Part shown: piece by piece, positions 2,507-60,671 of the stretch
Layout of the letters: each line of letters begins with the position of its first letter
Numbering within the stretch: position 1 is the first letter of the stretch
NCBI GenBank assembly: GCA_001661245.1
Contig: KV454013.1
Location: 714,502 to 778,501, forward strand
Reading direction: 5' to 3'
From: Pachysolen tannophilus NRRL Y-2460
Lineage: Eukaryota
DNA: 64,000 nucleotides
Notes under the pieces: model-generated
The model's database searches: none
Told to the model about the DNA's origin: nothing
What the model saw: the letters and a program-made list of their open reading frames with translations, nothing else
Translations under genes and position numbers: made by a program

Positions 2507-4192
2507 ATGGTTGACAAGAAAAATCAAGTTGATGAAACTATATCGATTCTTCAACCTAAAGGGTTGGGATCAGAAAGTGAATCAGAAGAGTTGAATAGCA
2601 GTCATTCTACTTTCCAAACTTACAAGATTATTGTTCCTCCAGTAAGTGGAAGTGATGAGAAGACAGCAACTGATTGTTTTTATATTACTAAAGATTGGAC
2701 TGAAGAAGAAGAGAATAGAGTTAAGAGGAAAGCTGATTGGATTGTTATGCCCTTATTAATATTGGGGTTCTTTGCTTTGCAGTTGGATAGAGGAAATATC
2801 TCGAATGCTTTAACAGGTACTATTTTGGAAGATTTGAATATAACTGAAGACCAAGTTAATGTTGGGAATCAGTTGTTATATGTTGGTATTGTGTTAGGTG
2901 AAATTCCAAGTAACTATGTATTACAAAGAGTTGGTCCTAGAAATTGGATAAGTTGTCAAATTGTTGTTTGGGGTCTCGTTGCATTTTGTCAAGCTTTTAT
3001 TCAAAATTATGCAGGTTTCCTTGTCACAAGAATAATATTAGGATTTTGTGAATCAGGGTTTATTTGTGCTGGTTTGTACTGTATCTCATATTGGTACAGA
3101 AAAGATGAATTGGGAAAACGTCACAGTTTATATTATTTTGGTAATTATGGTGCATCTTGTATCAGTGGTTATATTGCTGGTGGATTATTGGAAATTAAAG
3201 TTTGGAATGGTTGGAGATGGTTGTTTTTAGTTGAAGGTATATTTACCATGGTTATTGGGGTTTTTTTTAGTTTAATCTTCCCACAGTCAACAACCGATAC
3301 TTCTCCATTTTGGGCTCCTAAACTTCAACTTTTCAATAAAAGAGAGAGGTACATCTTAACAAATCGACTTTTACTTGATGATCCAATTAAAGCTCTTAAC
3401 TTGAGAAGACATATGAGTTTAGGAGATATCAAAAGAGGTTTGCTTAAATGGAGAATTTGGTACCACGGTATAATAAGTTTTGTCAATAATGGGCCTTACG
3501 GTGCATTGTCCACATACTATCCAACTCTTATCAAATCAATGGGATATACTCAGTTCCAAGCAAATGCTTTATCCTCTGTTGCATATTGGATTGGTCTTGT
3601 TTTTTCGTTTTCTGCAAATACCCAAGCGGATTATTTTAAACCAAGAGCTATTCCCGTTATGTTTTGGAGTATCTGGCAGTTATCATTTGCTATTGCCTTT
3701 AGGTGTATCAATGGTTCTGCATCATATCATCTGAGGTATGCTGTGTTGACATTATTAATGAGCAGTACTATGGTCATTCATATTTTGAATACTTACTGGG
3801 TAAGTTTGAATGCTGCTACACCAACAGATAGGTCAATAGCATTAGCAATGAACATTTCGTTGGTTAATATGGGAAATATTTATGGTAATCAGCTTTTCCG
3901 TAGTAGCGATCTGCCTGCATATAAACATGGAATGTTGGTGATCATCATCCTTTTCATTATTGGTTTCTTTTTAATTCTTTTTAACATGATTCAGTATTAT
4001 TGGACTAATAAACAGTTGGATAAGAAATATCCAGTGGAAAACACTAATGAAGTTGGTGCACAGCTGGTATCAATCGATCGTGGTGTTAATTCATACTCTA
4101 AAGATGAACATGGGTTTATTGTTGTTGATTTTACTAAAAATGCAAACGTTGATTACGACGAAGTTTACAGAAAGTTCAGATATTCACCTTGA
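2507..4192 (+). CDS. MFS transporter, Dal5/allantoate permease family, SOA1/AstA-like (sulfonate/sulfate uptake)
   Basis: Motifs WTEEEE..V.RK.D, ALQLDRGNISNAL, EIPSN and GWRWLFLVEG; about 12 TM segments; C-terminal FRY. Start at ATG 2507 chosen because it lies downstream of the TATA-like element; an in-frame ATG at 2351 also exists. Confidence 0.88.
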   Translation: MVDKKNQVDETISILQPKGLGSESESEELNSSHSTFQTYKIIVPPVSGSDEKTATDCFYITKDWTEEEENRVKRKADWIVMPLLILGFFALQLDRGNISNALTGTILEDLNITEDQVNVGNQLLYVGIVLGEIPSNYVLQRVGPRNWISCQIVVWGLVAFCQAFIQNYAGFLVTRIILGFCESGFICAGLYCISYWYRKDELGKRHSLYYFGNYGASCISGYIAGGLLEIKVWNGWRWLFLVEGIFTMVIGVFFSLIFPQSTTDTSPFWAPKLQLFNKRERYILTNRLLLDDPIKALNLRRHMSLGDIKRGLLKWRIWYHGIISFVNNGPYGALSTYYPTLIKSMGYTQFQANALSSVAYWIGLVFSFSANTQADYFKPRAIPVMFWSIWQLSFAIAFRCINGSASYHLRYAVLTLLMSSTMVIHILNTYWVSLNAATPTDRSIALAMNISLVNMGNIYGNQLFRSSDLPAYKHGMLVIIILFIIGFFLILFNMIQYYWTNKQLDKKYPVENTNEVGAQLVSIDRGVNSYSKDEHGFIVVDFTKNANVDYDEVYRKFRYSP

Positions 4193-4347
4193 TTTTCATT
4201 TCTACTATTTAAATTTTTTATTTCTTCCTAAAAGCTATTGCAAACTTTTTAATTTCAATTCTTTTCAAAATTAGTTAATGATGGATAGCTACATATATAT
4301 ATCTGTGCACTAATTAATATTTTTATTTATATTTTTTAAATCGACTA

Positions 4348-5886
4348 TTACTCTCTATACTTTTCCATAAATTTGTTATGGAATTTTTGCCAATCATATA
4401 TCCATTGGTTTCCTGGAGCCAAAAAAGTTGTTCTTACATGGTAAGTTCCTGGAACTTGACCAAACCCGGAACCTGGGACTGCACAAATACCTGTACTCAT
4501 CAATAATTCATGACAATAAAATTCATCTGCTTCAATACCCAATTCTTGAGCAATTTTGATAGCTTTTTGTGGAATCGATATTTTTGGGAAACAGTACATT
4601 GATCCTTCTGGTAATTGACATTCAACACCTTCCATTTCATTAAAAGCTTTATATAACTCTGTAGCCTTATCTTTCAACGAATTATGAATTGCAGATCTTT
4701 CTTTTTGATCTAATTCATATGATTCAGAACCTGGTTGAGGTGGATTTACCATTAATTGAACTAAAGCTTGACCTGTTACAACAGGACATAATGAAATCGA
4801 TGCCAATTTCAAAATTTGTTGCCTGACCTCTTCTTCAAATCCAATAATTTCCATATAACCTCCTCTTTGACCACATTCACCACTAACACCTTTTGAAGTT
4901 GAGTGTAAAGAAGCTAATTGGACATTGTCAAATTTTCCTGGGAACCTTTCTTGTAATGATCTTAAAGTTTTCTTAAAGGAAACAAACTCACCTTTGAAAA
5001 TATTTTCTTGATAAACTTCATCTGCAATAACTACTAAACCGTATTCAGCAGCAACTTCTAATATTTCTTCAATAACTTCTTGTTTTAACACAGAACCTGT
5101 TGGGTTTCCAGGAGTTATAACAACTAAAGCTCTAATATCAATTCCAGCTTTTTCATTTTCCTTACATAATTTACCTAATTCTTTAGGATTAACTGACCAA
5201 TTTTCTTGTTCATTTAAATAATATGGAATCACTGGTGCATTTTGTATGGCCAAAGTAGCGGTATATAATGGATACTGGGGGATAGGAATCATAAACCCAG
5301 TAGATTTCCCATTAGATAATAAAGACAACAAGTATGAAACAGCTGTTGATGCACCTGTAGTTAAAAAGATGTCATCAGCATGAGCTTTGTAACCATCTCT
5401 TTTCGAAATAAATTCAGCAATTGATTTTCTAATATAAGGTACACCTTGGGAATGAGAATAAGCACCAACAGATCCTGTATTTTCAACTAAAATTTTAGCT
5501 CTTTCAACAACATCTTTTGGAAATAATTTGCCAAGTTCTTTTTTCTCAATCAATTCTGGATATTGTAAAATCGATAAAACTTGTCTATAAAAAGTTAAAG
5601 GTTTTTGATCCAATTGTTGAGGATTCCCGATATTAGCATTTATAATTTGTTTAAATGGTAATTCCTTCCCCAGTGGAGATTTTAACTTCAGCCTTAATTC
5701 TTCAGCTTTTGTAGGAATACTACCACGAACAGCATACTTGGCATTTAAAGCATGTTTATTCAATTGAACAGCCTTTAACTTTCCTGCTGGTGTAAAATTT
5801 GGTACCGAAGATAACGATCTAGTAAACTTATAGTTTCTCAATACTGGGTTTACTTTATCGATTAAACCTGATCTATACCTAAGCAT
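4348..5886 (-). CDS. ALT1: Alanine aminotransferase with mitochondrial presequence
   Basis: Motifs AKYAVRG, ANIGNPQ, GAYSHSQG, ADEVYQEN and SLHSTSKG (PLP lysine) GECGQRGG; Arg-rich N-terminus; first ATG at 5886. Confidence 0.95.
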   Translation of the reverse strand: MLRYRSGLIDKVNPVLRNYKFTRSLSSVPNFTPAGKLKAVQLNKHALNAKYAVRGSIPTKAEELRLKLKSPLGKELPFKQIINANIGNPQQLDQKPLTFYRQVLSILQYPELIEKKELGKLFPKDVVERAKILVENTGSVGAYSHSQGVPYIRKSIAEFISKRDGYKAHADDIFLTTGASTAVSYLLSLLSNGKSTGFMIPIPQYPLYTATLAIQNAPVIPYYLNEQENWSVNPKELGKLCKENEKAGIDIRALVVITPGNPTGSVLKQEVIEEILEVAAEYGLVVIADEVYQENIFKGEFVSFKKTLRSLQERFPGKFDNVQLASLHSTSKGVSGECGQRGGYMEIIGFEEEVRQQILKLASISLCPVVTGQALVQLMVNPPQPGSESYELDQKERSAIHNSLKDKATELYKAFNEMEGVECQLPEGSMYCFPKISIPQKAIKIAQELGIEADEFYCHELLMSTGICAVPGSGFGQVPGTYHVRTTFLAPGNQWIYDWQKFHNKFMEKYRE

Positions 5887-8218: not shown

Positions 8219-8280
8219 ATAGATATATTTCACTATCCAGCACATGGTTCAGAAATAAACATGAAAAAAAAAAAAAAATC

Positions 8281-9260
8281 TAATTTAATTAATTTGTGTA
8301 CATATTTATATATTTTATTAACTCTCTTCATATTTTTTTTTTTTTTTAATATCCATACACTTTACAAAATAATAATAAAAAAGACACAAGTATCTTTAAT
8401 TATCTTTATTAGTACTAATATTGTTATTTGATTTGAGGACATTTGTACTAACTGTTCTCCTCAAATTTTTTTTATCAGAACCAGCTTCATTACTGTTACC
8501 GTTAATTACTATCCCGCCATGATTAACTCCTATACCATACCAGCTTGGCTGCTGATGTTGGTGCTGTTGATATTGATTAATATTCGTGTGTGTAAAACTT
8601 CTTGTTAGTTTGGCGTTATTATTAGTTTCAGGTCCACCAAGATTTGGTGAACTATTATTGCTTGTGCTGATCCCCATAGTTACGCCGTTGGCTAATTTCT
8701 TGCTGGTGTAATCTCTCATATTATCTAAATCTGAAAAACTAAGAACAGATGACCTTGTTCTTATCCTACCGGGGCGTTCTTCATTTCCAAAAGAAATGCT
8801 CTTGAAATTAACAGAATCGTTATCTTCATCATGTTGTGATATTATCAGCACAGGCGGTAATAATGATCCTTCTTGTGATTGCACATCTTGATTTTTGTAA
8901 AGATTCATCAATCCTTCTTCCAAATCGCTTAAAGATATTTCTTCTTTGTTCAAATTTCGAAGAATAAATTTGTTGTAATACCTTCTGACAGTTAATTTGG
9001 TCTTAGAAATGAGTGAACCCAGTGAAAAATTTAAAAATTTAAAACGATGTATTCCAGTACGGTACAACAGGAAAAATATAAACCCAATAAGTATAACAAG
9101 TATAGCTAGCGAAGTCATGGATGTACTATTTGCGTCATTATTTATAATATACTTATTGTTAACTGAGTTTCTACCAGATGAAGAAGCAGTTGCCTTAAAA
9201 TCAATCTTGTTTTCGATATTACTATTAGTAGATTCCAAACTTTGACCTGCACTTAATAAA
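8281..9260. repeat. Near-identical duplicate of 9429-10407 (3' end of YND1) abutting an N-gap; probable assembly artefact
   Basis: Offset 1147; the copy ends exactly at the N-run; visible differences are confined to homopolymer or AT runs. Confidence 0.9.
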
Positions 9261-9427
9261 NNNNNNNNNNNNNNNNNNNNNNNNNNNNNNNNNNNNNNNN
9301 NNNNNNNNNNNNNNNNNNNNNNNNNNNNNNNNNNNNNNNNNNNNNNNNNNNNNNNNNNNNNNNNNNNNNNNNNNNNNNNNNNNNNNNNNNNNNNNNNNNN
9401 NNNNNNNNNNNNNNNNNNNNNNNNNNN
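9261..9427. other. Assembly gap (N-run)
   Basis: Run of n characters. Confidence 1.
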
Positions 9428-9542: not shown

Positions 9543-11867
9543 TTAATTATCTTTATTAGTACTAATATTGTTATTTGATTTGAGGACATTTGTACTAACT
9601 GTTCTCCTCAAATTTTTTTTATCAGAACCAGCTTCATTACTGTTACCGTTAATTACTATCCCGCCATGATTAACTCCTATACCATACCAGCTTGGCTGCT
9701 GATGTTGGTGCTGTTGATATTGATTAATATTCGTGTGTGTAAAACTTCTTGTTAGTTTGGCGTTATTATTAGTTTCAGGTCCACCAAGATTTGGTGAACT
9801 ATTATTGCTTGTGCTGATCCCCATAGTTACGCCGTTGGCTAATTTCTTGCTGGTGTAATCTCTCATATTATCTAAATCTGAAAAACTAAGAACAGATGAC
9901 CTTGTTCTTATCCTACCGGGGCGTTCTTCATTTCCAAAAGAAATGCTCTTGAAATTAACAGAATCGTTATCTTCATCATGTTGTGATATTATCAGCACAG
10001 GCGGTAATAATGATCCTTCTTGTGATTGCACATCTTGATTTTTGTAAAGATTCATCAATCCTTCTTCCAAATCGCTTAAAGATATTTCTTCTTTGTTCAA
10101 ATTTCGAAGAATAAATTTGTTGTAATACCTTCTGACAGTTAATTTGGTCTTAGAAATGAGTGAACCCAGTGAAAAATTTAAAAATTTAAAACGATGTATT
10201 CCAGTACGGTACAACAGGAAAAATATAAACCCAATAAGTATAACAAGTATAGCTAGCGAAGTCATGGATGTACTATTTGCGTCATTATTTATAATATACT
10301 TATTGTTAACTGAGTTTCTACCAGATGAAGAAGCAGTTGCCTTAAAATCAATCTTGTTTTCGATATTACTATTAGTAGATTCCAAACTTTGACCTGCACT
10401 TAATAAACTATTTTCACTAGGAATTATGCCAATTCTATAAACATTGTCGTTGTTGTCCTTTGAGGGTATCTGGTTACTAACGTATAACAACATTTTACCT
10501 AAAGTCCATGATAACTCAGCGCCTTCAACCAAGTTAACAGATTGAAATGAAGGAATGTGTTGTAAGTTCTTTGCCTGTTCCAATTCATTGTTTTCACTAT
10601 TTAATGATTTTAATTGATCTTCACTTAAATAGCTTGTATCTATACCAATTCTTGGAAGTCCAAAACCTTCGTGAAGAATGTTGATTACCCAACTAGCTTT
10701 AAAACAGGAATCTTTTAAATACTCTAATTTCATATTTTCCCCATATTTTCCAGCTTCAAAATTACTTGAAATTGTAGCCCATTCTTCACTACAAAATTCT
10801 TTAACTTTTTCATTAAATTTCAAGAAATTATATTCACCTCCCATATTGAAAACATCATTTGCAGTGTACCAATATTCTGAGACACCAACGAATTTATCTT
10901 CTTTAAAATCAATCTGTGGTGCATGAACACCATTGAACAAACATGGATTATCATCACAGGGTAAATGCTTAAGCAAAAGAGGATATATATCTTTTAAACA
11001 AACTTCATAATCTCCTAAACCTTTTATCTTATAATCTTTATTATTATATTGGAAATCAATAACAACATCTTTTGGTGAACAAGGATCAAAAAGATACTTA
11101 TCATATTCTTCTTTTGTATCAATATTTTCTGGTAATGAGCTTATTGCATTTTTCAAATGTCTTCTTCTTGCCTCATTTGCTCCAAAACCTAACCATGTTG
11201 ATACAAATACTTTCCAAGATTGTGTATCACCATTTACGTTCCTCAAATTCACTGTAAATAAATCATTAGTATGTTTTGAGATCTCTGATTTATTTGAAGG
11301 AACAAATGCAATTTGAGTTGAAGCACCTCCCATATCCATAAATCCAAAACTTGTATGATCTTGATTTTGATCATAATTATCAAATTGTCCCATTAAATAA
11401 TTTAAACCAATCCAACCAAAAAGACCTTCTGTTTCTCCATCAATGACTCTAACATGATTTTGACAATCTGGAATATAAAAATTTGAATGTTTATTTATAC
11501 CTGTACAAACATTGTTTAAAATCTTAAATCTTGGTGTTTCTTGAACCATTCTCATACCTGCTGTTGCTAATACAAAAATAGGTGTCTCTGCTTGTTGATC
11601 TAAAGGAATAATTTTTTCAGCATATTCCATAAGATGTCGAAAATGTTCATCCCAAACATGTGAAGGTCTATCTTTAAAAGATGAAATCCCAGGAGATATC
11701 TTATAACTCCAATTGTCTTCTTGTACAATTTTAGGAATGGATCTCAAGATATTCTCATCTTTTGAACTTTCTTGTAAAAAAACTGGATCTGTCCATTTAT
11801 ACACTTGTAACCTTGAACCAGAGGAACCAGAATCAATGATAATTCCATATCTATCATGCTCACCCAT
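9543..11867 (-). CDS. YND1: Golgi apyrase (GDA1/CD39 NTPDase)
   Basis: Apyrase regions DSGSSGSR, LATAGMR, GETEG and DMGGASTQ; SWTLG; single C-terminal TM and a cytosolic tail. Confidence 0.95.
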   Translation of the reverse strand: MGEHDRYGIIIDSGSSGSRLQVYKWTDPVFLQESSKDENILRSIPKIVQEDNWSYKISPGISSFKDRPSHVWDEHFRHLMEYAEKIIPLDQQAETPIFVLATAGMRMVQETPRFKILNNVCTGINKHSNFYIPDCQNHVRVIDGETEGLFGWIGLNYLMGQFDNYDQNQDHTSFGFMDMGGASTQIAFVPSNKSEISKHTNDLFTVNLRNVNGDTQSWKVFVSTWLGFGANEARRRHLKNAISSLPENIDTKEEYDKYLFDPCSPKDVVIDFQYNNKDYKIKGLGDYEVCLKDIYPLLLKHLPCDDNPCLFNGVHAPQIDFKEDKFVGVSEYWYTANDVFNMGGEYNFLKFNEKVKEFCSEEWATISSNFEAGKYGENMKLEYLKDSCFKASWVINILHEGFGLPRIGIDTSYLSEDQLKSLNSENNELEQAKNLQHIPSFQSVNLVEGAELSWTLGKMLLYVSNQIPSKDNNDNVYRIGIIPSENSLLSAGQSLESTNSNIENKIDFKATASSSGRNSVNNKYIINNDANSTSMTSLAILVILIGFIFFLLYRTGIHRFKFLNFSLGSLISKTKLTVRRYYNKFILRNLNKEEISLSDLEEGLMNLYKNQDVQSQEGSLLPPVLIISQHDEDNDSVNFKSISFGNEERPGRIRTRSSVLSFSDLDNMRDYTSKKLANGVTMGISTSNNSSPNLGGPETNNNAKLTRSFTHTNINQYQQHQHQQPSWYGIGVNHGGIVINGNSNEAGSDKKNLRRTVSTNVLKSNNNISTNKDN

Positions 11868-12118: not shown

Positions 12119-12772
12119 CTAAATTGCCTTATCACTCAGCTCCTTTGTTGTTGATTTGTGTTTACGACGATGATGGTGGCGATGGTGGTTGCGGTTGTGG
12201 CTATCAGAACTATTTTTCTGCTTATTTTTGTTTTGTAAATATTCTTCCATTGGATCTTTGAACTCATCATCATTATTGTCATTGTCATTATTCTCCTTTA
12301 TTGTCTTTATAGTGTTACTTGTTTCTTGTAATTCTTCATCACTGCTTTTTTCCAAATCTTTATCTAACTCTTCTTTAATAATTCTTTCATTTTCTTTAAT
12401 TCTTTCCATTTCCTTTGGATCGTCACTTTTAAATGGCTTATATATACAATGATCAACTTTAACTGTTCTATCTAAGATCTTAATACCATTTAAATTATCC
12501 ACTGCTAATATAGTTGAGCGTTGGTCTTCATATTTTAAAAATCCAAACCCTTTTGAATTTCCTGTCTTTGAATCTCGTACTAACTTGAGATCTACAGGTA
12601 CGCCGTATTGAGAAAAGATGGTTAAGATATCACCTTCAGTAAGGTCAAACGGTAAAGACCCAATATATATATATGAACTATCTTTATATTGCTGGTGCCA
12701 TGATGCAGACAGGGAAATGTTATTATCCAATTCCTGTTGGTTTAGCTCTTGAATAGCTCTTATAGAATTCAT
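12119..12772 (-). CDS. IST3: U2 snRNP/RES complex RRM protein Ist3/Snu17
   Basis: Motifs ASWH..YKD, LTEGDILTIFSQYG, GFGFLKYEDQRSTILAVDNLNG and VDH; ATG at 12772 (MNSIRAI). Confidence 0.93.
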   Translation of the reverse strand: MNSIRAIQELNQQELDNNISLSASWHQQYKDSSYIYIGSLPFDLTEGDILTIFSQYGVPVDLKLVRDSKTGNSKGFGFLKYEDQRSTILAVDNLNGIKILDRTVKVDHCIYKPFKSDDPKEMERIKENERIIKEELDKDLEKSSDEELQETSNTIKTIKENNDNDNNDDEFKDPMEEYLQNKNKQKNSSDSHNRNHHRHHHRRKHKSTTKELSDKAI

Positions 12773-14655: not shown

Positions 14656-14669
14656 AAGAAACACTTTGG

Positions 14670-15159
14670 TTTTTTTTTTTCTTTCAATCTAATGATAAAT
14701 TCCATAAACCATCACCTAAATAATGAATTAATTCAATACCAATACCTTTATTTATTGATTTGATTTCGTCGGTGCTCATAACCAATTTACCTATAGCTAA
14801 AGCATTTTCTTTACCTTCAGCGTTAATAATTACAATTGTACCTTTTGGTAAATTTTCTTGAGGTAATTTTGCACCTTTAGAAGTTAAACCTGGACACATT
14901 ATATTAGCTCCACTTAATACAAATTTAATAGCACCTCTATCTACTTGTACAGTTTGAAAACATGAAGGATATTTATGAACAATTTTTAAAAAAGGAAGTA
15001 CCTCATCTTGTTGTTGATATATGACCACATTATCATCTATACTGTATAACAGAATCTTATCTTCACACTTGTGAAGCACCAATTGTGATTTCTTCGGTAT
15101 TATAACATCTACTACAGCTTCCAACCCGGGATATTCTTGAATAAGATTGGATTTTAAAC
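14670..15159. repeat. Duplicate of 15271-15760 (3' part of TMA20) abutting an N-gap; probable assembly artefact
   Basis: Offset 601; appears identical and ends exactly at the N-run. Confidence 0.9.
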
Positions 15160-15270
15160 NNNNNNNNNNNNNNNNNNNNNNNNNNNNNNNNNNNNNNNNN
15201 NNNNNNNNNNNNNNNNNNNNNNNNNNNNNNNNNNNNNNNNNNNNNNNNNNNNNNNNNNNNNNNNNNNNNN
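15160..15270. other. Assembly gap (N-run)
   Basis: Run of n characters. Confidence 1.
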
Positions 15271-15284
15271 TTTTTTTTTTTCTT

Positions 15285-15949
15285 TCAATCTAATGATAAA
15301 TTCCATAAACCATCACCTAAATAATGAATTAATTCAATACCAATACCTTTATTTATTGATTTGATTTCGTCGGTGCTCATAACCAATTTACCTATAGCTA
15401 AAGCATTTTCTTTACCTTCAGCGTTAATAATTACAATTGTACCTTTTGGTAAATTTTCTTGAGGTAATTTTGCACCTTTAGAAGTTAAACCTGGACACAT
15501 TATATTAGCTCCACTTAATACAAATTTAATAGCACCTCTATCTACTTGTACAGTTTGAAAACATGAAGGATATTTATGAACAATTTTTAAAAAAGGAAGT
15601 ACCTCATCTTGTTGTTGATATATGACCACATTATCATCTATACTGTATAACAGAATCTTATCTTCACACTTGTGAAGCACCAATTGTGATTTCTTCGGTA
15701 TTATAACATCTACTACAGCTTCCAACCCGGGATATTCTTGAATAAGATTGGATTTTAAACCTCTTTGAACTGATGATTTAATATTTGAACGTGAATGAAT
15801 ATCTTCTTTTGTAAATCTTGACAAAAATAAAAAAATAAAAAATTAAAACAAAACTGTTAGCACAATCATTCAATGACAATTAAAGATAGAAAACAAAAAA
15901 AAAAAAAAAAAAAGAGAGAGATATATTGATGTACTTACTTTTTAAACAT
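15285..15949 (-). CDS. TMA20: Tma20/MCT-1 PUA-domain translation factor; exons 15949-15939 and 15816-15285
   Basis: Spliced product begins MFKKFTKEDIHSRS; motif VDRGAIKFVLSGANIMCPGLTS...HYLGDGLW. Confidence 0.95.
15817..15938 (-). other. Spliceosomal intron of TMA20 (122 nt)
   Basis: 5' GTAAGT, branch TGCTAAC, U-rich tract and 3' AAG; splicing restores the frame and the conserved MFKKF start. Confidence 0.9.
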
Positions 15950-16684: not shown

Positions 16685-18274
16685 ATGTCAGTTGATTTAC
16701 AGGATCAAGCTCCGGATATTGTGATTGGTGGCTCGTTGGATGAGAATCAACCACCTTCTCATAATTATGCTAGTGATCAAGAAGAAGAACATGATGAACG
16801 TGAACAAGAAGAAGAATTAAAACAAGCCAAGAAACTGGTATCATTTGCTGGTTTGGATGATTTTGAAGATGAAGAAGAAAAACGTCAGAGAGAGTTTGAA
16901 GAAGGTGGTGGACTTCCAGAACAACCAGAAAATCCAGATTTTTCAAAATTAACTCCACTTTCTCCAGAAATTATTAATAGACAAGCAACAATTAATATTG
17001 GTACTATAGGTCATGTTGCTCATGGTAAATCTACAGTGGTTAAAGCCATTTCAGGAGTTCAAACAGTTCGTTTTAAAGATGAATTGGAAAGAAATATTAC
17101 TATTAAATTAGGTTATGCAAATGCAAAGATTTATAAATGTGATAATGAAGAATGTTTAGAACCAGGTTGTTATAGATCTTTTAAATCGGATAGAGAAATT
17201 TCTCCAAAATGTGAAAGAGAAGGTTGTTCTGGCCGTTATAAATTGGTACGTCACGTTTCATTTGTTGATTGTCCAGGGCATGATATTCTTATGAGTACTA
17301 TGTTATCAGGTGCTGCAGTAATGGATGCTGCACTTTTACTTATTGCAGGTAATGAAAGTTGTCCACAACCACAAACTTCAGAACATCTTGCAGCTATTGA
17401 AATTATGAAGTTGAAACATGTTATTATTTTACAAAATAAAGTTGATTTAATGAGAGAAGAAACTGCATTACAACATGAAAAATCTATTTTAAAATTTATT
17501 AGAGGTACTATTGCAGATGGTGCTCCAATTGTTCCTATCTCTGCTCAGTTGAAATATAATATTGATGCAGTAAATGAATTTATAGTCAATACTATTCCAG
17601 TACCACCAAGAGATTTTAGTGCTTCTCCAAGATTAATTGTTATTAGATCATTTGATGTTAATAAACCAGGAGCAGAAATCGGTGATCTTAAAGGTGGTGT
17701 CGCTGGTGGATCCATCTTGACCGGTGTGTTTAAAATTGGTGATGAAATCGAAATTAGACCAGGTATTGTTACAAAAGATGATAATGGTAAAATTCAATGT
17801 AAACCAATTTTTAGTAAAATTGTATCACTTTTCGCTGAACATAATGATTTAAAATTTGCAGTTCCTGGTGGATTAATCGGTGTTGGTACTAAAGTCGATC
17901 CTACCTTATGTAGAGCTGATAGATTAGTTGGTCAAGTTGTTGGAGCAAAAGGACATTTACCTTCCATTTATACCGATATCGAAATTAATTATTTCCTTTT
18001 AAGAAGATTATTAGGTGTTAAAACTGATGGTCTGAAACAAGCAAAAGTTAGAAAATTAGAAACAAATGAAGTCTTAATGGTTAACATTGGATCCACAGCA
18101 ACAGGTGCAAGAGTCGTTGCTGTAAAAGCAGATATGGCAAGATTACAATTAACAGCACCAGCATGTACTGAAATTAACGAAAAAATTGCATTAAGTAGAA
18201 GAATTGAAAAACATTGGCGTTTAATCGGTTGGGCCACCATTAAAAAGGGTACTACTTTAGAGCCATTGAATTGA
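16685..18274 (+). CDS. GCD11: Translation initiation factor eIF2 gamma
   Basis: Motifs [29 protein letters not shown] and [13 protein letters not shown]. Confidence 0.98.
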
Positions 18275-22184: not shown

Positions 22185-25100
22185 CTAAGTTAATTGTCTT
22201 TTTAGTTCTTTTAATGTCTGAAATTCCTTAGCAACCATGGCATAAACATCGTTATTGGAAAGAATGAGATTTGAAATACCCAACTCTTGTCTCACTTTAA
22301 TCATCAATACAATACTTTCAATTCTAGTAATAATATGATCCATTAATGTTAAAAAATCAATATTGGTCATTCTGTTACTTAAAGTATTAGTTGTGGTGGT
22401 TTCAAACGTGGAATAATTTTTGCAATCCCTATCACTCACACCTGCTGATAAATACGACAGGATTTGTTCTAATCTCAACCCCAAAGTTCTTAATTTCCAG
22501 AAAAGATCAGTATTCAATATACCATTGACACTGACACTACTGTTCAGAGGAGTGTCAGCTTCGTTAAATTTGAACCTAGAAGCTAAAGGTCTGGCATATA
22601 TTAATGTTATTGATTCAGGAGTTTCTAAACCTTTTAATTTCATTTCCCCGATATTTTCAATAACCCAACCAATATTCTCTAGTTGTGTTACTTCTTTATC
22701 TAACGTTACAGCCATATTTCCATACTCTTCACCATAAGCTTCTCTTATCGAAGTTGTCTTTGACTTATCATGGCATGCTTTAATCTTATTAAATTCAAAG
22801 AGGAAATCTGAACTTAAAGTGATTTGACCACCATCAGCAACGCCACTTATACGAGAAGTTCTATTAACCATTGGTCCAAAATAATCCATTCTCTTGGTAA
22901 TTATATCAGTTTCACATACAGGAATACCCCAATGAGCACCCATTCTTACAGATAAACCTCTGAAAATTAAATTGTTCGCTTCATCACTAATTTCACAACC
23001 TTGATCACTTTCTATAATCTCAGTTGGCCAATCTGCTATCAATAATTGCTGCTGAACAGAAAAACACCAAAGTAATGCTGATGTTGCTGTTGGGAAAGAA
23101 ACCATAAATGCATCACCTTCAGTTTTAACCTCATAACCACCAACTATTCTTAGTTGACGACGCATAATGGAATTATGTGTTTTAATAGCGGATCTCATGG
23201 CAATAGGAAAGTTATCCCATAATAATGTTGAATTTTTAATATCAGTGAATACCATCGCTACTTCACCAACGGGTGGCTCAATTTCCTGCTCCAATCTTCT
23301 CAAAGCTGTATCTTCTGGTAGGGAAGATTTATTCCTTCTAAACTTTAGCAAGTTTTCATTTTCTTCTGCTTTCCTTCTCAAAACAACAGAGTTATCTTTA
23401 TTTAAAGATATGACAACCGCAGTCACTTTATCAGAAGCACCATATGAGATAGCATAATCTCTTAACTTCTCAGCTGCTAACATAGGATTGTTTTTCTCTT
23501 GTCTAATAACATCTACTGCAAAATCATAAGAAACATATTTCCATAGTTCTTTCGTACCAATTGCAATCATTTCATCACTAGGTGATAGTTCAAGAACAGA
23601 TATATCAGGTCCAGAATGAATATGCGGCAATAAATTGAAAAACCCAACTGCTCTGGAAACATCAACAGTGCCATCCAATTTTCCATCACTATTTACAAAT
23701 CCACCGGTAGCTCTTATTCTATCATATTCCCCTTGAGAATACGGTAAATGCTCGGTAGTTAAAACAAGATGTTCGCCGTTTGATCTCGTCAACATAGCCA
23801 TGGTATCACCGATGTTAGCAGTATACAAAGTTTTGTCTTTAATGTATATAACAGTAGCGCAGCAACCACATAGACCATCATGTGAAGTCAAGTCGTAAGT
23901 TGTTGAAGTCCGATGGGCTGGTGTAACTGAAGAAAATGTTGAAGCATCGCTTTTGATAATTATCGAATTGATTTCTCTATTCATCGTCAAAAATGAACGA
24001 CGCAATGCATCATAAATGGAAGATTCATCCTTCTTTAATTCATCAGCAAATATCATAGCAAATGTCTCCTGAATGATTTTTGCAATTTTATGGCCCTGTT
24101 TATCATCGCCATTTTTACCATCAAAAATACTTATCAATATTTCATTTTCGTTATTTCTAAACTTATCCAAAACAACATCCCTTGTTGTAACACCATCACT
24201 ACTACCTAAAGTATCAGAAATACCATATCCAAACCTACTGAACTCAGAAGCTGTTGTACGAATACGGCTCGCAACTGTTTGGTCTGGGACTTTTTGGGTG
24301 ATTAATGTGACATCCATCAAACCTAAAACCTTAAGATTTTTGAGCCCAAGAAAACTATCCAAATCTCCGTGAAGTGTTACATCTTTGTTGTGACTCGGTT
24401 TGATTTCCAACCTTTTATTACCTGAAAAATTTAAATATTTCAAGTCACCATTCCAGTTCCAATTCCAATCATAGGGCCAGTTTGAAATGTTGTATTTCAA
24501 TTGATTTGAACCAACATCTAATACACTCAAATGGCTAATCTTAGATAGTTCAGACGGTAGCGAATGGAACCTATTACCGTTCAAATGTAATATCATCAAA
24601 TTCTGCAAATGTTCCAAATCATCTGAAGGTAACGAAGAAAGTTTGTTTCCTGAAAGGTACAAATATGTCAAACTATCCATTTTCTTCAAAGTACCAGGAG
24701 GAATTTCAATAATCTCATTATATGACAAATTTAATGACTTTAACCTCGAAAATAACGAGAAAACTTGTAAGCTTTGATCGTCTATTCTGTTATCAGAAAT
24801 AGATAGGTAAAGTAAACTATCTGACAAAAACTGTTCCGAAATTGGAGGCGAAGATTCTGATAAATTGCCTGTTTCAACATAATTTGAAGAATCTGAATTT
24901 TTAACTAAAGCACTAGGTCTTCTCGAGTTCAAAGGAGAAACTGAATCTGAAGAAGAATTCCTCTCTTTGCTGATACTGTCGACTTCGGTGATCCTAGAAG
25001 AAAAAAAGTTCAGCAGGGGCTTTGGAAAATCTTGTAAAAGATTTGAAGATAAGTTCAAGATAGACAATGAACTCAAATTCCAAATTTCTGGAGACAATAC

Positions 25101-43399: not shown

Positions 43400-45805
43400 A
43401 TGCCCTCGATATTAGATCCGTATTCGATAACTGGACTTCCCAGAATTTCAACAACTTCTTCTGATGATGGATTTTCATCGTTATGTGCAATATCAGAGAT
43501 TTCGAATAAGGATACCCCATTTATAGATTTGGCTATTGATGGCTCGATTATTGGAACTTATATATTAAGACCAACTCCAAAATTGGTTTGGTCATTCGCT
43601 ATATCTCCTATAACTGTTGTTGATTGTTTGGATAGTTTTAACACTGTTGAAGATGGTGAAAGTGATAAAGTTGTTGTTTGTGTTAGTGAACGGAAGAAAA
43701 AATTTTTCATTTTAATTGAAAAATTGAAAACTGATTCAGATGATATAAATGTTAAGAGTGAAAAAATTTTAATAACTGGGAAGAAAATTATTGGATTAAA
43801 ATTTTCTAATAATGGAGATAGTTTTTATTCTATCTCTGAGAATGGACAAGTTGGATTATATGATTTCAAATTTGAAGGTGATGAAACGAAAAAAATAGAT
43901 CCAATAAGTTTTATTGAAGGTACAAGTAAAACTTCAAAAGTTTTATTTCATAAGTTTATGAAGACTAGTCAATCTCTTGATATTGCAAAAGCTGAAGGAT
44001 ACTTGTTATCATTGGAATATTCAAATAAAAATTTTAATTTCAAAGTATATGCATTATTAAATGATAAAAATATCTTAGAAATGAGTAATTCGACATTATC
44101 ATCATTGTCTAAATTAAATTTAGATTCATTAAAAATTATTTATGATCCATCGGGGAATTTAATAATCTTGGATATTATTAATTATAATTTATTTTGTTTC
44201 AAGATACCAACAGGTGAATTAATGAAAAAAATTTCTCTTGCAAATAAATTGTCAAATTTTCCTCAAAATAGAGAAATAACACTTTTGGTACCTGCACCAA
44301 ATAGATTATTACTAGCAATAAATAATACTATATTCTTGATTGAATTGAAACATGAAGCAATATTGGATACATATACAACATCATCACCATCATCGGTTTT
44401 AGCATTGCTTCAATGTCCTTTTGTTAAAGGTAACTCTTTAAATACAAAAGAATCGAATTTTTTTGTTTTAAATAAAAATATGAAAAATGGTTCGGTTTCA
44501 TTGAAAAATTTTTCAATAGATGTTGGATATGGTAATTTAGCTGATTGTTTAGGTAAAGGTATCAATAGGGTTACAGAATATTCAGATGATAAAGTTTTTT
44601 TCCAAAACGAGGTTAAAGCTTTCACAGATTTAATCAAGATTGATTCGAATAAGCTGCAACTACAAGAAGAAGATACAATAGCAAGTGGTGAATTATACCA
44701 ATTATACTGTTTCTTGAAAGAAAGCCTGCTTTCAGCAGATGTTCTGAGATGGGAATCGATTTTTGTTCCATACATGAAAACTTCAACAAAATCTTTTGAA
44801 TCACTTAGAAACGAAATTAAAGATTCAAGTCTTCATAAAATCGACAATCAGAAACAAGATTTTAAAATTTTTGAATTGGAAAATGATAGAATAATTGATT
44901 CAAAATTTATTTATAAAATTGTCAGTTTAATATTTAAACGTGGAGAAGATGGCAAATTAGCTTTATATAATTCTAATTTTGTTCCTGAAGCTACTTTAAC
45001 ATATTTACTTACACATCCTCTTTTCCCAACAGAATTCACTAAAGGGTTACTTCAATCTTTAAATAGATTCCCAAGATTAATTAGACAAGCAATTGTAACA
45101 TGTCCAAACTTATCTTGTCTCGAGTTAATTCAACAGTTGGACCTTATTGAAAATAATGAAATTTTCAAAGATTTGGTTGTTAGATTAGTTGAAGAATATA
45201 GTAGTGAAAAGATCACACAGGAAACAATGAAAATTATGAATTCTAATAACCAACTGAATTCCGAAACAACTAATAATGGATCATTTGATTTGGATAAAAT
45301 TATAGGAAAGATTATTCGTTTAAATTTTGGTTTTGAAATATTAAATTCTTTTATTGATTCCAATGGTTTGATCTTGAGTTTACATTATTCTAAAAATGAA
45401 TCGAATTTGGAGAAATTCATCAATAAGATAGATTACAAGATAAACTCTTTATTGGTGAATTCACAATTACTTACATTGGTAAATCAATCATTGATCAATG
45501 CTAACGAGTTATCACCTGAAATTGGAAATAACACATATATCAAGAAATCTAAAAAGACAAAGAAAAATAAAAAGAAACTGGAACAACTGCAAGAATTAAA
45601 GAGATTAGAACAAAATACCAATCAAACTCCATTAACTATATCTGAAAATATCAACGAAACAAAGATGAGATTAGAATCAATGTTAACCATTGACAAGAAA
45701 AATGATCATCATGGCGGGTTATTCAAAAATAACACTATTAACGGTGGTTCTGGTTCTTTTGATAAAAAAGTTCCTTCATATTCCGTTGAAAAATTAATTA
45801 TATAG
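43400..45805 (+). CDS. UTP8: SSU processome / tRNA-export protein Utp8
   Basis: MPS...LPR start, PTPKLVW, YLLTHPLFP, RQAIVTCPNL and terminal YSVEKL; RRPE-PAC promoter; ATG at 43400. Confidence 0.88.
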   Translation: MPSILDPYSITGLPRISTTSSDDGFSSLCAISEISNKDTPFIDLAIDGSIIGTYILRPTPKLVWSFAISPITVVDCLDSFNTVEDGESDKVVVCVSERKKKFFILIEKLKTDSDDINVKSEKILITGKKIIGLKFSNNGDSFYSISENGQVGLYDFKFEGDETKKIDPISFIEGTSKTSKVLFHKFMKTSQSLDIAKAEGYLLSLEYSNKNFNFKVYALLNDKNILEMSNSTLSSLSKLNLDSLKIIYDPSGNLIILDIINYNLFCFKIPTGELMKKISLANKLSNFPQNREITLLVPAPNRLLLAINNTIFLIELKHEAILDTYTTSSPSSVLALLQCPFVKGNSLNTKESNFFVLNKNMKNGSVSLKNFSIDVGYGNLADCLGKGINRVTEYSDDKVFFQNEVKAFTDLIKIDSNKLQLQEEDTIASGELYQLYCFLKESLLSADVLRWESIFVPYMKTSTKSFESLRNEIKDSSLHKIDNQKQDFKIFELENDRIIDSKFIYKIVSLIFKRGEDGKLALYNSNFVPEATLTYLLTHPLFPTEFTKGLLQSLNRFPRLIRQAIVTCPNLSCLELIQQLDLIENNEIFKDLVVRLVEEYSSEKITQETMKIMNSNNQLNSETTNNGSFDLDKIIGKIIRLNFGFEILNSFIDSNGLILSLHYSKNESNLEKFINKIDYKINSLLVNSQLLTLVNQSLINANELSPEIGNNTYIKKSKKTKKNKKKLEQLQELKRLEQNTNQTPLTISENINETKMRLESMLTIDKKNDHHGGLFKNNTINGGSGSFDKKVPSYSVEKLII

Positions 45806-46377: not shown

Positions 46378-49300
46378 ATGGATGATTATAATTTTTCGCC
46401 CACATCTTCTTCTTTTACAAATAAGAACAATAGGAAAGTAACATCTTTCCCTCAGGCTTTTTCATTTTCCAATCCTTCTTCATTTCATCATCAGGCAAAT
46501 GACGTGCCTGGATCAAGACAGCATATATACGGGAGCTTCAAGGCGACACCGTCTCCTACTAGCAACAACAACAACAACATTTTCAGTTCAGCATCGCCTG
46601 CTGTCAATTCAGATGAAGCAATTCATGAACAAGCAGCCGAGTTGGCCCGAGTAGGTGTCTCAGAAGAAAGTGATGAGGATCACACAGGCGATTATAATAA
46701 CAATGATAACAACAACAACAATAATAATGGTAGTAGCATTGGAGAGATTCCCTCGTCATCAACTGATACTCCAGCAGATTTAGATTTTTTAAACAATAGT
46801 AATGATATGGATAATCAATTATACAGAAATCCAACATATTCGGTTAGTCCCAAAAATAGTAATCCACCGAGCATTGTTGATCAGCTGGATTTTCTGCCTT
46901 ATCATCCATTTCATCCTGATCCTTCAGTTGACTCAAATACACCTCTTTTACATGATCCTTTTAAACAACATAATATCATAAATGGAACTAGCAGTTCTCT
47001 AATTCCAATAACTTCAGTAGATTTGGAAAATGGATTACCAATTCGTCGAAATTTTTTTCTGCGGTTTCTGAATAATATATCTCAGTTATTAAAACCTCAT
47101 AATTTAAAAAACTGTGTGGTAAAACCGCTGACTTATTTCCCAGCCGTTTTTTTGGGAGTTTTATTAAATGTGTTGGATGGCTTATCTTATGGAATGATTA
47201 TGTTCCCTCTTAGTGAAGCCGTTTTCAGTTCAATGGCACCTGCCGGACTTTCAATGTTCTATATATCTTGTATCATCTCCCAGTTAGTCTTTTCTTGTGG
47301 AGGTTCGGCATTTCCTTCAGGTATTGGCTCTGAAATGATTGAAGTAACGCCTTTTTTGCATTCAATGGCATATAGTATTTTGAACAGTATTGGAAATACA
47401 GAAGAGAACCAGGAACTGATAATAGCCACTACAATGTTCGCATATGCAATAAGTTCTATGGTTACTGGTGCTGTCTTTTATACATTAGGAAAATGCAAAC
47501 TAGGTTCATTGGTTGCCTTTTTCCCTAGGCACATCTTGGTAGGATGTATTGGAGGTGTTGGATATTTTTTAGTTGTTACTGGGATTGAAACCTCATCTAG
47601 GTTAGATGGTGGCCTACAATATACTTTACCTGTTTTGAAGTTCTTACTTCAACCCATCACGTTATTACAATGGACAATTCCTCTTTTGTTGGCAATATTG
47701 TTGATAATAATTCAAAGATATAATCGTAACGCTTTAATTGTTCCAGGTTATTTCATCGCTGTATTTATTACTTTCCACTTATTAATATTCTTAGTTCCAT
47801 CTTGGGATCTACCCTTAGCAAGAAATTACGGTTGGATCTTTGAATCCCATGAATCAAAAGAACCTTGGTATGGATTTTATCTGTTGTATAAATTTGATAA
47901 AGTTCACTGGATGAAAATTTTGTCACAAGTTCCAACTATGTTTGCATTGACTTTTTTCGGTATATTACATGTTCCTATAAATGTTCCTGCCTTGGCTGTA
48001 ACTTTGGGTGTTGATGAGTATGATGTTGACAGAGAACTTGTTGCACATGGATATTCAAATATTTTATCGGGATTTGTTGGTTCTATCCAAAACTATCTAG
48101 TATATACAAACAGTGTTTTATTCATTCTTGCTGGAGCAGGCAAAGATTCTCATTTGAGTGGAATTATGCTTGCTCTTGGAACCGTAGCTATGATGGTTGC
48201 CGGTCCCGTAGTGATCGGATATATACCAGTTTGCGTTGTTGGTGCATTGATCTATTTATTAGGGTATGAATTGTTACGAGAAGCTTTATACGATACATGG
48301 GGTCGATTAAGCAGATTTGAATATTTAACAATTGTTATCATCGTAATAACAATGGGTGCTTGGGATTTCGTCTATGGTATTTTGGTTGGTGTGTTATTGC
48401 TGTGCATTTCTTTTGTAGTTGAAGCTGCTCAGAGACCTGTAATATCTGGTGTATATACTGGAAGTTATGCGAGATCTACAGTATTGAGACACCCAAAGCA
48501 ACAGGATTTTTTAAAAGATGTTGGGGATCAGATATATATTTTGAAACTTCAAGGATCATTATTTTTTGGATCAATTGGCGGTCTTGAGAGGAAAATACGA
48601 AGCAGATTTGAAGAAAATGCTTTTGCAAAAGAGCCAGTTAGATATTTGGTTTTAGATATGAATTCAGTGTTGGGTATCGACTTTTCTGCAGCTGAAGGTT
48701 TCAGAAGAATTAAAAACTTGATTATTGGTAAAAATTGCTACTTAATAATATCTTCTGTTTTTGAAAATAGCAATATCATAAAATCTTTGAGAGATGCTGG
48801 ATTATGGGAGACTCTGGAAGATAATAAAAGAATTCAATTATTCACTGACTTAAACTCATCTTTAGAATGGTGTGAAAATACTTTTCTCAAAACATATAGT
48901 GTCTACAAGCTCAAGTCAGGCCGTAATATTGTAGTCAGCTGTAATAACCACAGTAGCACCAATGCTAGTGGTGGCAATGGGAATGGGAATGAGAACGGCA
49001 ATGTCACTGGAAACAACAATAAAGTAACTAGAAAAGAGTTGACTATTCCAACTAGACAACGCAAAACATCCACAGTTGCTGCGGCTGCTGCTTCTGGAGG
49101 GTTTGGTGGTAGTTTAATGTCTTCATATTACGTTGAAGATTCGTTATCGGAAGGCTCTCCGCGTCATGTTCAAATTGTAAGAGCTGCTAAGAAGACAATT
49201 TATGATGAAGGTAATAAGTTATTTTATGGTGGTAATGATATAGCTGCAGATAAGCAACCGTTACCTCTTATATTAACAATATTTCAAAGTTTATCAGATA

Positions 49301-49716
49301 AAAGAGATGTCAAATTTTGGCTTCGCCTAGCACCTTTTTTCAAAAAAGAAGTGATACCTGCAAATATAAGTTTCCATTCCAGTGATGATAGTCCTAGTAT
49401 GTTTCTTGTTGAAAACGGATTAATCAATATGGACTACAAGTACGAACTAAATAACAGTAGTAAAGTTGGAACTTTACATGCAAGCATATTACCACTTACA
49501 GCTTTTGGAAATTTGAGAAAACTGATTTATTCAAGTGACTTGGTCTGTGAATATAAAACAAAAGTGGATAGCACAGTGTGGACATTAAATGCTGAAACCT
49601 TGGAGAATCTAAAGTCCAAACATCCAAAGTTGTACATCGAGTTGGCTGAAATTGAAATGAGATTGATGGAAGAGAGGTTCGATACAATGACTTGTAATCT
49701 TATTGTTTCTTCTTGA
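46378..49716 (+). CDS. VSB1: SulP/SLC26-family vacuolar transporter with STAS and cNMP-like domains (Vsb1/YGR125W-like)
   Basis: Motifs PAVFLGVLLNVLDGLSYG, GSEMIE, FFGILHVPINVPAL, QNYLVYTNS and LEWCEN. Confidence 0.88.
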   Translation: MDDYNFSPTSSSFTNKNNRKVTSFPQAFSFSNPSSFHHQANDVPGSRQHIYGSFKATPSPTSNNNNNIFSSASPAVNSDEAIHEQAAELARVGVSEESDEDHTGDYNNNDNNNNNNNGSSIGEIPSSSTDTPADLDFLNNSNDMDNQLYRNPTYSVSPKNSNPPSIVDQLDFLPYHPFHPDPSVDSNTPLLHDPFKQHNIINGTSSSLIPITSVDLENGLPIRRNFFLRFLNNISQLLKPHNLKNCVVKPLTYFPAVFLGVLLNVLDGLSYGMIMFPLSEAVFSSMAPAGLSMFYISCIISQLVFSCGGSAFPSGIGSEMIEVTPFLHSMAYSILNSIGNTEENQELIIATTMFAYAISSMVTGAVFYTLGKCKLGSLVAFFPRHILVGCIGGVGYFLVVTGIETSSRLDGGLQYTLPVLKFLLQPITLLQWTIPLLLAILLIIIQRYNRNALIVPGYFIAVFITFHLLIFLVPSWDLPLARNYGWIFESHESKEPWYGFYLLYKFDKVHWMKILSQVPTMFALTFFGILHVPINVPALAVTLGVDEYDVDRELVAHGYSNILSGFVGSIQNYLVYTNSVLFILAGAGKDSHLSGIMLALGTVAMMVAGPVVIGYIPVCVVGALIYLLGYELLREALYDTWGRLSRFEYLTIVIIVITMGAWDFVYGILVGVLLLCISFVVEAAQRPVISGVYTGSYARSTVLRHPKQQDFLKDVGDQIYILKLQGSLFFGSIGGLERKIRSRFEENAFAKEPVRYLVLDMNSVLGIDFSAAEGFRRIKNLIIGKNCYLIISSVFENSNIIKSLRDAGLWETLEDNKRIQLFTDLNSSLEWCENTFLKTYSVYKLKSGRNIVVSCNNHSSTNASGGNGNGNENGNVTGNNNKVTRKELTIPTRQRKTSTVAAAAASGGFGGSLMSSYYVEDSLSEGSPRHVQIVRAAKKTIYDEGNKLFYGGNDIAADKQPLPLILTIFQSLSDKRDVKFWLRLAPFFKKEVIPANISFHSSDDSPSMFLVENGLINMDYKYELNNSSKVGTLHASILPLTAFGNLRKLIYSSDLVCEYKTKVDSTVWTLNAETLENLKSKHPKLYIELAEIEMRLMEERFDTMTCNLIVSS

Positions 49717-54251: not shown

Positions 54252-54323
54252 CGCTCTACATGAGATTCGAACTCACAGTCTCCGCATTAGGAGTGCGATG
54301 CCTTACCATTTGGCCAATAGAGC
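54252..54323 (-). tRNA. tRNA-Arg(CCU), intronless
   Basis: Minus strand GCTCTATTGGCCAAATGGTAAGGCATCGCACTCCTAATGCGGAGACTGTGAGTTCGAATCTCATGTAGAGCG: acceptor stem GCTCTAT/GTAGAGC, A box, anticodon loop CT-CCT-AA and B box GTTCGAATC. Confidence 0.95.
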
Positions 54324-54759
54324 TTTATACAATCTTATATTGGCAAAAATGCGATAAATGAAGATTACTGTCAAATACGGGAAAAATCTGATAAAATCTG
54401 ATAAAAAACACAATTATTATCTTATCATGAGTTATCTAATTCTAAAACAATTCAATCTGTATTAGCTTTTATATATATATATATGTATATTAAATCAAAT
54501 TATATGAACACTAATCGGCCACTTCGTGAATAAATAATCAATCATTCAAGGGACGAAACAGGGGGGAAAAAGAACACAAAACAAAAGCAGATTCAAAAAG
54601 CTATATACATCATTATAAAACAGACGATTCTTGAAAATACTATATATAAGATAAGATATGGGGTTCAGCAATATAAAAAAAAACGATAAAAAAACAAGTA
54701 AAAAAAAAAAAAAAATATTCTCACCAAGATGATATCTAACACAGGATAAAATGAAAAAA

Positions 54760-57754: not shown

Positions 57755-58509
57755 GAAACTTTAAATAATACTAAACAGTTATTTTCTCTAGTCAAAGTTA
57801 TTGAAGACCTTATTAAAGGAAAAAAAAAAACAAAAAAAAACAACAAAAATAAAATTTTAATTTTAAAAAATAAGAGATATATATATATACAGGGTTAAAT
57901 CTCGAGGGGAAAAAAAAAATACAAGGGAAAGAAATTTAAACTATTAACAAGTGAATGGATATACTATATTATTTTTTTTTCTTTCTTTTGATTCTATTCT
58001 ATTTTGTATTCTGATAATAAATATATATTTAAATAAATCAATATATATAAAATATATATTATTTAATTTATTTCTGTTGATTTCGATATTTTTTACGTTT
58101 TTACGGTTTTCCAGTTTTGTAAATCTCTCGCCAAAAGAAAAAGTTTAAAAAAAAAAAAAGAAATCCAATTTTTGAAAAAGGCTAAAAAAATTAGAAATAT
58201 TAAATTACAAGACAAAATAGTTCAGTTTTGAGTTCGATTAGATACAAATAAAACTATTTCAGCAACAGCGCTTCAGTAATACCGTTTTACTACTAAGTTT
58301 GATTATCTGTTTTGTTCAATTTGTTTTTGCATAGAAAGTATTCTTATCTAAATTTCAGTATTAAATGTTTAAATAGCTTATATTTATATATATATATACA
58401 GATATATGGTAGTGTATTGGAAACCCCAAGTTTCCTAAAGCAGTAGTTGAATATCACACATGTGATAAATTCTTAAATTTTGTTGTGTTGCCAAAGATTT
58501 TTTTTAAAT

Positions 58510-59802: not shown

Positions 59803-60287
59803 AATTACAAACAAACAAAACCCCACACTGTTTAAACACACTATATACAAATATACAATATTAATACACTTAACTTCTTTCATACCTTTGGAAAACTCTT
59901 ATATACAAAAAATGGGTTTGGTTTTTTATCTTAAATTCACACGACAAAACGATCAAAGGTAATGTTAAATACCAATATCAAGATGAAAAGTACCAAACTT
60001 GAAGACAAGATCTTTGGTGATGGGACATGTTCTCAGAAAGTTGAAATAAACTTATTTCCAAAGTAGATAGATATGTACTTTTGTGTTTTATGATTTTTTA
60101 AACTTTTCTGTTATTTAGTTGACTTTCAGCTTAGTTTTGCGGTTTTCACCTCTTTTATCAAGTAAGTCTTATCGGCCAAAAAAAGGTGCATAAGTTCTTA
60201 TAAAATGCCTAAATATCTTTTAATTGTGTAAAGAATTCAATTAAAATTTTTTTAATATAAATTAAAAATTTCATATAACAATTAAGA

Positions 60288-60671
60288 ATGCCAGCGGAGA
60301 AAGTAACTTGGGAACAAATTGGTGAAAAAAATGGATTTGCCTTGATTTCACCGGCTTATAAATCTAATGGACATGTTTTCACCTCAGGTTGTGTTGGTAC
60401 TGACCCTAAGACCGGTGAACTTCCAACAGACGTTACTGAACAAACTGAAAATGCCATCAAAAATTTGAAAATAGTTTTGGAAACTTCGCAATCATCTTTG
60501 GACAAAGTTTTAAAAGTCTTATTATTTATTTCGAATCTGGAAGATGCTCCAAAAATTAACGCAGTTTATGCAAAATATTTCACCAGTAAACCTGCAAGAT
60601 CATGTGTTATTGTTGCTTTCCCAAATTCGTCTTTAAAAGTTGAATTGGAGTGTGTAGCTGAATATGACTGA
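60288..60671 (+). CDS. RidA/YjgF/UK114-family enamine deaminase
   Basis: Motifs VFTSGCVG, EQT..A..NL..VL, PARSCV (catalytic Arg) and VELEC. Confidence 0.92.
   Translation: MPAEKVTWEQIGEKNGFALISPAYKSNGHVFTSGCVGTDPKTGELPTDVTEQTENAIKNLKIVLETSQSSLDKVLKVLLFISNLEDAPKINAVYAKYFTSKPARSCVIVAFPNSSLKVELECVAEYD

Follow-up and report, generated by a model that had tools for sequence, protein, structure and literature searches.

Alanine at CUG codons in a 64-kb window of the Pachysolen tannophilus NRRL Y-2460 genome: a homologue-based comparison with genetic code 26

Introduction

In the budding yeast Pachysolen tannophilus the codon CUG is read as alanine, a reassignment reported by Muhlhausen et al. (2016) from tRNA analysis and proteomics (PMC4937558) and credited also to a second study of the same year (reference 12 of Krassowski et al. 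2018, PMC5951914). Krassowski et al. (2018) give Pachysolen, Nakazawaea and Peterozyma as the alanine clade (PMC5951914), the order Alaninales was later erected under a diagnosis that includes CUG-Ala (Groenewald et al. 2023, PMC11182611), and P. tannophilus is placed in that order by the NCBI taxonomy. Here we describe the in-frame CTG codons of 64,000 nucleotides of P. tannophilus NRRL Y-2460 (assembly GCA_001661245.1, contig KV454013.1, forward-strand positions 714,502 to 778,501), a stretch referred to throughout, at its full length, as the window. An earlier note, made from the letters of the window, had proposed that this genome uses CUG as alanine (NCBI genetic code 26, here also table 26) and that the code would be novel only if the organism lay outside the Pachysolen/Nakazawaea/Peterozyma clade; the organism is Pachysolen, so the code is not novel.

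In the published account the old tRNA-Leu(CAG) was lost and the codon thus left free was then captured (PMC4937558). According to the literature, the ancestral tRNA-Leu(CAG) would have been lost first, and the decoder would be an alanine-family tRNA that had acquired the anticodon CAG by mutation while retaining G3:U70 and A73, by which alanyl-tRNA synthetase recognises it; because that synthetase does not read the anticodon, the CAG tRNA would be charged with alanine. The P. tannophilus tRNA(CAG) is reported to group with alanine tRNAs, to carry A73 and G3:U70 and to be without the long variable arm of the leucine and serine type, and proteomics is reported to have placed alanine at 97.2% of the CUG positions with full fragment-ion support, which numbered 907 (PMC4937558). 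The Serinales (Candida, table 12) and the Ascoidea/Saccharomycopsis group (Ser2 clade) are budding yeasts in which CUG was likewise taken from leucine, and in which the codon is likewise reported to have been captured by a tRNA whose synthetase ignores the anticodon (PMC4937558, PMC5951914); they differ in that the residue is serine.

The window is almost certainly nuclear DNA of P. tannophilus NRRL Y-2460 (Alaninales) in which CUG is read as alanine under code 26. Aligned with homologous proteins, its CTG columns are unlike those of leucine or serine codons and include invariant alanine columns.

Results

CTG columns in five masked alignments

A non-redundant set of 26 long open reading frames (ORFs) in the window comprises 16,373 codons, 92 of them in-frame CTG (0.56% of codons); with a duplicate ORF at 8396-9118 also counted, the figures are 95 CTG codons among 16,614 codons in 27 long ORFs. 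The CTG finding has the following span:

3731..60539, nuclear DNA: span of the CTG finding

To avoid bias, CTG was masked as X in each query before alignment with homologues. Five genes carrying 34 CTG codons were tallied, giving 24 columns with at most 30% gaps; one column was without any homologue residue. The alignment of the VSB1-like protein held 119 of 120 listed homologues, those of the adenylate cyclase CYR1 and the MFS transporter 119 of 120 each, and that of the eIF2-gamma GCD11 14 cluster members, the gene's own entry being dropped in all four cases. For an M16 peptidase (34029-37211) we used 129 of 150 representatives, the 21 outside 850-1250 residues being dropped.

Leucine makes up at least 50% of the homologue residues in 0/24 CTG columns, as against 304/503 columns at the other leucine codons (TTR/CTH; P = 2.2e-10), and its mean share is 6.6% at CTG columns versus 61% at those other codons. 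Serine reaches 50% in 0/24 CTG columns versus 131/390 columns at serine codons. It was conserved CTG columns being mostly leucine or serine that the earlier note had set against its own proposal, and these two zeros are the outcome of that count on the five genes. Alanine, on the other side, reaches 75% in 3/24 CTG columns, compared with 84/220 at GCN codons, 2/390 at serine codons, 2/248 at threonine codons and 0/503 at leucine codons; were CTG to behave as a serine codon, three or more such columns among 24 would be expected with P = 2.5e-4. The three columns are as follows:

48400..48402, forward strand: CTG codon 675 of the VSB1-like SulP/STAS protein (46378-49716), in GVLL-X-CISF; invariant alanine, 119/119 homologues
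47416..47418, forward strand: CTG codon 347 of the VSB1-like protein; conserved alanine column, 91/119 homologues; not cited in the earlier note
3911..3913, forward strand: CTG codon 521 of the MFS transporter (2351-4192), in SSD-X-PAYKH (motif D-X-P-A-Y); alanine in 99/119 homologues

A per-column profile score points the same way. Summed over the 24 columns as log-odds (pseudocount 0.3), it gives +7.6 bits for alanine, -4.3 for lysine, -6.6 for glutamine, -8.6 for serine and -19.7 for leucine, and alanine came first under all three pseudocount weights tried. As a control, the true residue ranked first in each of 300 random 24-column draws for all 20 amino acids. The rest of the code appears standard by the average-substitution (substitution-table) method: among the other sense codons, 53 were represented by 15 columns or more, and the standard residue was assigned to 53/53.

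Public translations and relatives of the genes

Translations of three ORFs (GCD11, 16685-18271; ALT1, 4351-5886; UTP8, 43400-45802) under tables 1, 26 and 12 were looked up for exact identity in a public collection (NCBI, UniRef, nr). The table-26 translations, with CTG as alanine, were matched exactly in 3/3 cases, while those under table 1 and table 12 were found in 0/3 cases each. Exact matches were thus obtained under table 26 alone, and therefore the depositors or processors of this genome already read CUG as alanine. The inference that this genome uses CUG as alanine is accordingly correct, both by these look-ups and by a tally that rejects leucine and serine and favours alanine.

Two public models of window genes, with different splicing, are named as P. 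tannophilus NRRL Y-2460: P0138 (PACTADRAFT_40970, adenylate cyclase) and P0258 (PACTADRAFT_75249, MFS). P0138 has alanine at 6/6 CTG sites locatable in the model, P0258 equals the table-26 reading of the window apart from two stretches spliced out in the model, and for VSB1 the table-26 reading and the gene's own entry in the database agree at 100%. The next-best relatives in the VSB1, CYR1 and MFS searches are no closer than 56-61% identity; Kuraishia, Ogataea, Komagataella and Babjeviella are among the named matches listed, all of which are other budding yeasts.

The models and the ORFs differ in length. The public adenylate cyclase model has 1425 aa versus 1916 aa for the uninterrupted ORF (22185-27935, reverse strand), and the public MFS model has 537 aa, with an internal methionine start and the two in-frame stretches spliced out, versus 613 aa for the ORF (2351-4192, forward strand). 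Homologues show little or no alignment to the N-terminal extensions of the two ORFs, and for that reason the true starts of the two genes are uncertain.

Individual CTG sites

All the CTG codons that had been cited from the sequence are present and in frame. Besides VSB1 48400 and MFS 3911 they include the following sites, some of which were compared with solved structures, at one to five sequences per site and mostly in variable columns:

3731..3733, forward strand: CTG codon 461 of the MFS transporter, in YH-X-RYA; variable column, R 30, L 24, H 23, T 13 and A 9 of 119
5689..5691, reverse strand: CTG codon 66 of the alanine aminotransferase (AlaAT) ALT1 (4348-5886), in EELR-X-KL; Glu in barley AlaAT (3tcm), Leu in human ALT2 (3ihj)
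18032..18034, forward strand: CTG codon 450 of eIF2-gamma GCD11 (16685-18274), in DG-X-KQ; polar column, with Q in 9 and S in 5 of the 14 cluster members
15651..15653, reverse strand: CTG of the TMA20/MCT-1 homologue, in KI-X-LY; polar, human MCT-1 having E and eIF2D having T
12710..12712, reverse strand: CTG codon 21 of IST3 (12119-12772); variable N-terminal column, S. cerevisiae Ist3 having P and human RBMX2 having D
60537..60539, forward strand: CTG of a RidA/YjgF-family frame (60279-60671); hydrophobic Met/Ile column, yeast Hmf1 having I and the four others M (5/5 alignments shown)

The earlier note had offered four homology matches as its main support. Two of these, the alanine of the DAPxY motif at MFS 3911 and that at VSB1 48400, are borne out by the homologues. 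The other two are not: MFS 3731 falls in a variable column that lends no support, and at ALT1 5691 the motif EELKAQL given there was not confirmed by the only two solved AlaATs that aligned across that stretch. The further sites had been described as small or polar and in any case not leucine, a description that suits GCD11 18032 and TMA20 15653. IST3 12712 lies in a column that is variable, and the RidA site at about 60537 was misdescribed, being isoleucine or methionine in 5/5 solved homologues. With two of the four matches not borne out and RidA misdescribed, fewer good sites than had been listed stood behind a conclusion that was nevertheless correct; the observation as worded there is partly confirmed and its interpretation is supported. 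SYS1 CTG codon 39 (IF-X-QI), which had been called ambiguous, is so by its Pfam scores (L 174.6, A 175.0, S 176.0). Among the 6 CTG codons of UTP8, codon 619 alone aligned to a solved structure, with Asn in S. cerevisiae.

The RidA motif beside the CTG is itself divergent, with FISN-X-EDAP in the window versus FLADINHF or FIKDMDSF in solved homologues.

Gene content and assembly features of the window

The window has a G+C content of about 31% and densely packed yeast-type genes. Among the genes to which Pfam gives a name are GAA1, the Dal5-like MFS transporter, alanine aminotransferase, eIF2-gamma and adenylate cyclase, and further UTP8, the VSB1-like SulP/STAS protein, SEC3 and a PUF protein. 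By frame, the trinucleotide CTG occurs 398 times in the +1 frame, 92 times in the coding frame and 28 times in the +2 frame of the 26 ORFs, a bias that fits avoidance of CTG as a codon where the genome is rich in AT and NCT-GNN junctions are frequent.

A search with ARAGORN and Rfam found no tRNA for CUG in the 64-kb window, the sole tRNA being the following:

54252..54323, reverse strand: tRNA-Arg(CCT), from ARAGORN; Rfam RF00005, 61.9 bits

Two runs of N are flanked by repeated sequence. The first, of 167 N at 9261-9427, lies between two copies of a block at least 620 bp long (8561-9180 and 9708-10327), so that the C-terminal 240 residues of a GDA1/CD39 (YND1-like) gene, located at 9543-11867, recur in the ORF at 8396-9118. 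The arrangement looks like an artefact of the assembly gap, through which 3 CTG codons were counted twice. The second, of 111 N at 15160-15270, has the TMA20/MCT-1 coding stretch copied on both sides (14684-15159 and 15285-15842) with identical translations, and is probably a second gap artefact rather than a real tandem duplication.

Discussion

Alternative readings of CUG

Three other readings of CUG have to be set beside alanine. Under the standard code CUG would be leucine and the alanine matches would be chance substitutions at a few sites. A little can be said for this: the Gaa1, MFS_1 and ArsA_HSP20 Pfam scores are slightly higher with leucine, the RidA codon sits in a Met/Ile column, and leucine is the commonest residue (26%) in one variable column, VSB1 1049. 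Against it stand the leucine counts of the tally, both the columns at 50% or more and the mean share, the rank of leucine among the 20 residues (18th by an average-substitution likelihood, 10th or 11th by profile score), columns of at least 75% alanine in 3/24 CTG cases yet in 0/503 leucine-codon cases, the 0/3 result for table-1 translations, and the alanine reported at CUG by published proteomics (PMC4937558). The present counts already refute the standard code, and we consider it practically impossible here. Serine, as under table 12 in the Candida and Ascoidea clades, calls for a closer comparison: summed Pfam scores are the same for serine and alanine, the average-substitution likelihood marginally favours serine (-109.0 vs -110.6), and several polar CTG columns contain it (GCD11 450, 5/14; VSB1 502 and 813, 20/119 each). 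Conservation speaks against it, with no CTG column reaching 50% serine (P(0/24) about 5e-5 at the 131/390 rate of serine codons) and three reaching 75% alanine, which only 2/390 serine-codon columns do (P = 2.5e-4). The profile log-odds (-8.6 for serine vs +7.6 for alanine) and the 0/3 result for table-12 translations also speak against serine, as does the source, P. tannophilus, for which a tRNA(CAG) of alanine identity and peptides with alanine at CUG are reported (PMC4937558). We regard serine as extremely improbable.

A third possibility is that CUG is mainly alanine but is decoded ambiguously or by context, some sites, for instance in a hydrophobic core, receiving another residue. The scarcity of conserved alanine at CTG relative to GCN columns (3/24 vs 84/220, P = 0.006) and the Met/Ile column of RidA would suit it, as would the published deviations, which comprise 8 positions where a further residue was seen beside alanine and 18 where a residue other than alanine was the only one (PMC4937558). 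The same paper reports, however, that such deviations were no commoner than at the unambiguous AUG, and concludes that CUG is unambiguous (PMC4937558). Low conservation could moreover be explained by the origin of CTG codons alone, as the code table suggests. Ambiguous decoding thus seems highly improbable to us, and unambiguous alanine remains the preferred reading.

Strength of the case for alanine

Several results weigh against the alanine reading or limit what the window can say for it. Within the window the case for alanine in particular rests on three columns, a small sample, and the two best of these lie outside Pfam matches (VSB1 675 past Sulfate_transp 253-654, MFS 521 past MFS_1 136-506). 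The margin of alanine over the runner-up in the profile score is about 12 bits, versus at least 30.5 bits in all 300 24-column GCN draws. The average-substitution likelihood (S -109.0, A -110.6, T -110.9, K -111.6, L -136.7) rejects leucine alone and cannot separate serine, alanine, threonine and lysine, and for that reason it was replaced by the per-column profile score and the count of conserved columns. Pfam bit scores under tables 1, 26 and 12 show small differences in either direction: summed, they are about 7 bits above leucine for alanine and serine each, with alanine equal to serine, and some families score higher with leucine, namely Gaa1 (441.3 vs 439.1) and MFS_1 (109.5 vs 107.9) slightly, ArsA_HSP20 (32.4 vs 27.0), CYAA_C by 1.5, and Helicase_C in a 1078-aa helicase (28393-31629) by 1.8. 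Of the CTG codons tallied, 17 belong to CYR1 and the M16 peptidase and give 0 conserved alanine columns, CYR1 codons 206, 974 and 1826 being dominated by F (82/119), P (75/119) and C (93/119), and the RidA codon lies in a Met/Ile column in 5/5 solved homologues shown. Finally, columns of at least 75% alanine are rarer at CTG than at GCN by the counts already given. In sum, 64 kb of sequence is decisive for rejecting leucine and only just enough to prefer alanine to serine.

Conservation at CTG columns

CTG columns are weakly conserved whichever residue is considered, any single residue reaching 75% in 4/24 of them versus 98/220 GCN columns (P = 0.004).

A GCN codon never becomes CTG by one base change, and CTG is reachable in a single step only from codons for Leu, Val, Met, Pro, Gln and Arg. 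The simplest reason for the pattern, taken from the code table, would be that new CTG codons settle or persist where a change to alanine is tolerated; both the weak conservation of CTG columns and the small alanine margin would then be owed to how CTG codons arise. It has also to be considered whether CUG-Ala codons are not equivalent to ordinary alanine codons, being concentrated at weakly constrained sites with a few at conserved non-alanine columns (RidA 60537, Met/Ile; CYR1 1826, Cys; CYR1 206, Phe), perhaps because, beyond mutational origin, some non-alanine decoding persists at certain sites or in certain contexts, or because CUG is selected against where an alanine is critical. We think this very unlikely, and would look to the mutational origin of the codons.

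Comparison with published code 26 and implications

Set against published code 26, the window comes from the same organism (P. tannophilus, PMC4937558), public translations of its genes use that code, and its CTG columns include invariant alanine without conserved leucine or serine while 53/53 other sense codons are standard. CTG density is similar, with 92 codons in 26 ORFs here and 16,824 reported in 5,288 proteins (PMC4937558). Conserved alanine occurs at only 3/24 CTG columns, whereas the paper describes CUG as reassigned "mainly at conserved alanine positions" in cytoskeletal and motor proteins (PMC4937558). From the CUG-Ser clades the window differs in the residue itself, with 0/24 CTG columns at 50% or more serine and 3/24 at 75% or more alanine. 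There is no difference in kind between the window and code 26 as published: CUG-Ala in this DNA is already known, for exactly this organism, and nothing in it is scientifically new.

On a practical level, the window needs table 26, since translation under the standard code would place 92 wrong residues in 26 ORFs, including the invariant alanine of the VSB1-like transporter. The correct code was recovered from a few conserved columns by a reader with the sequence alone.

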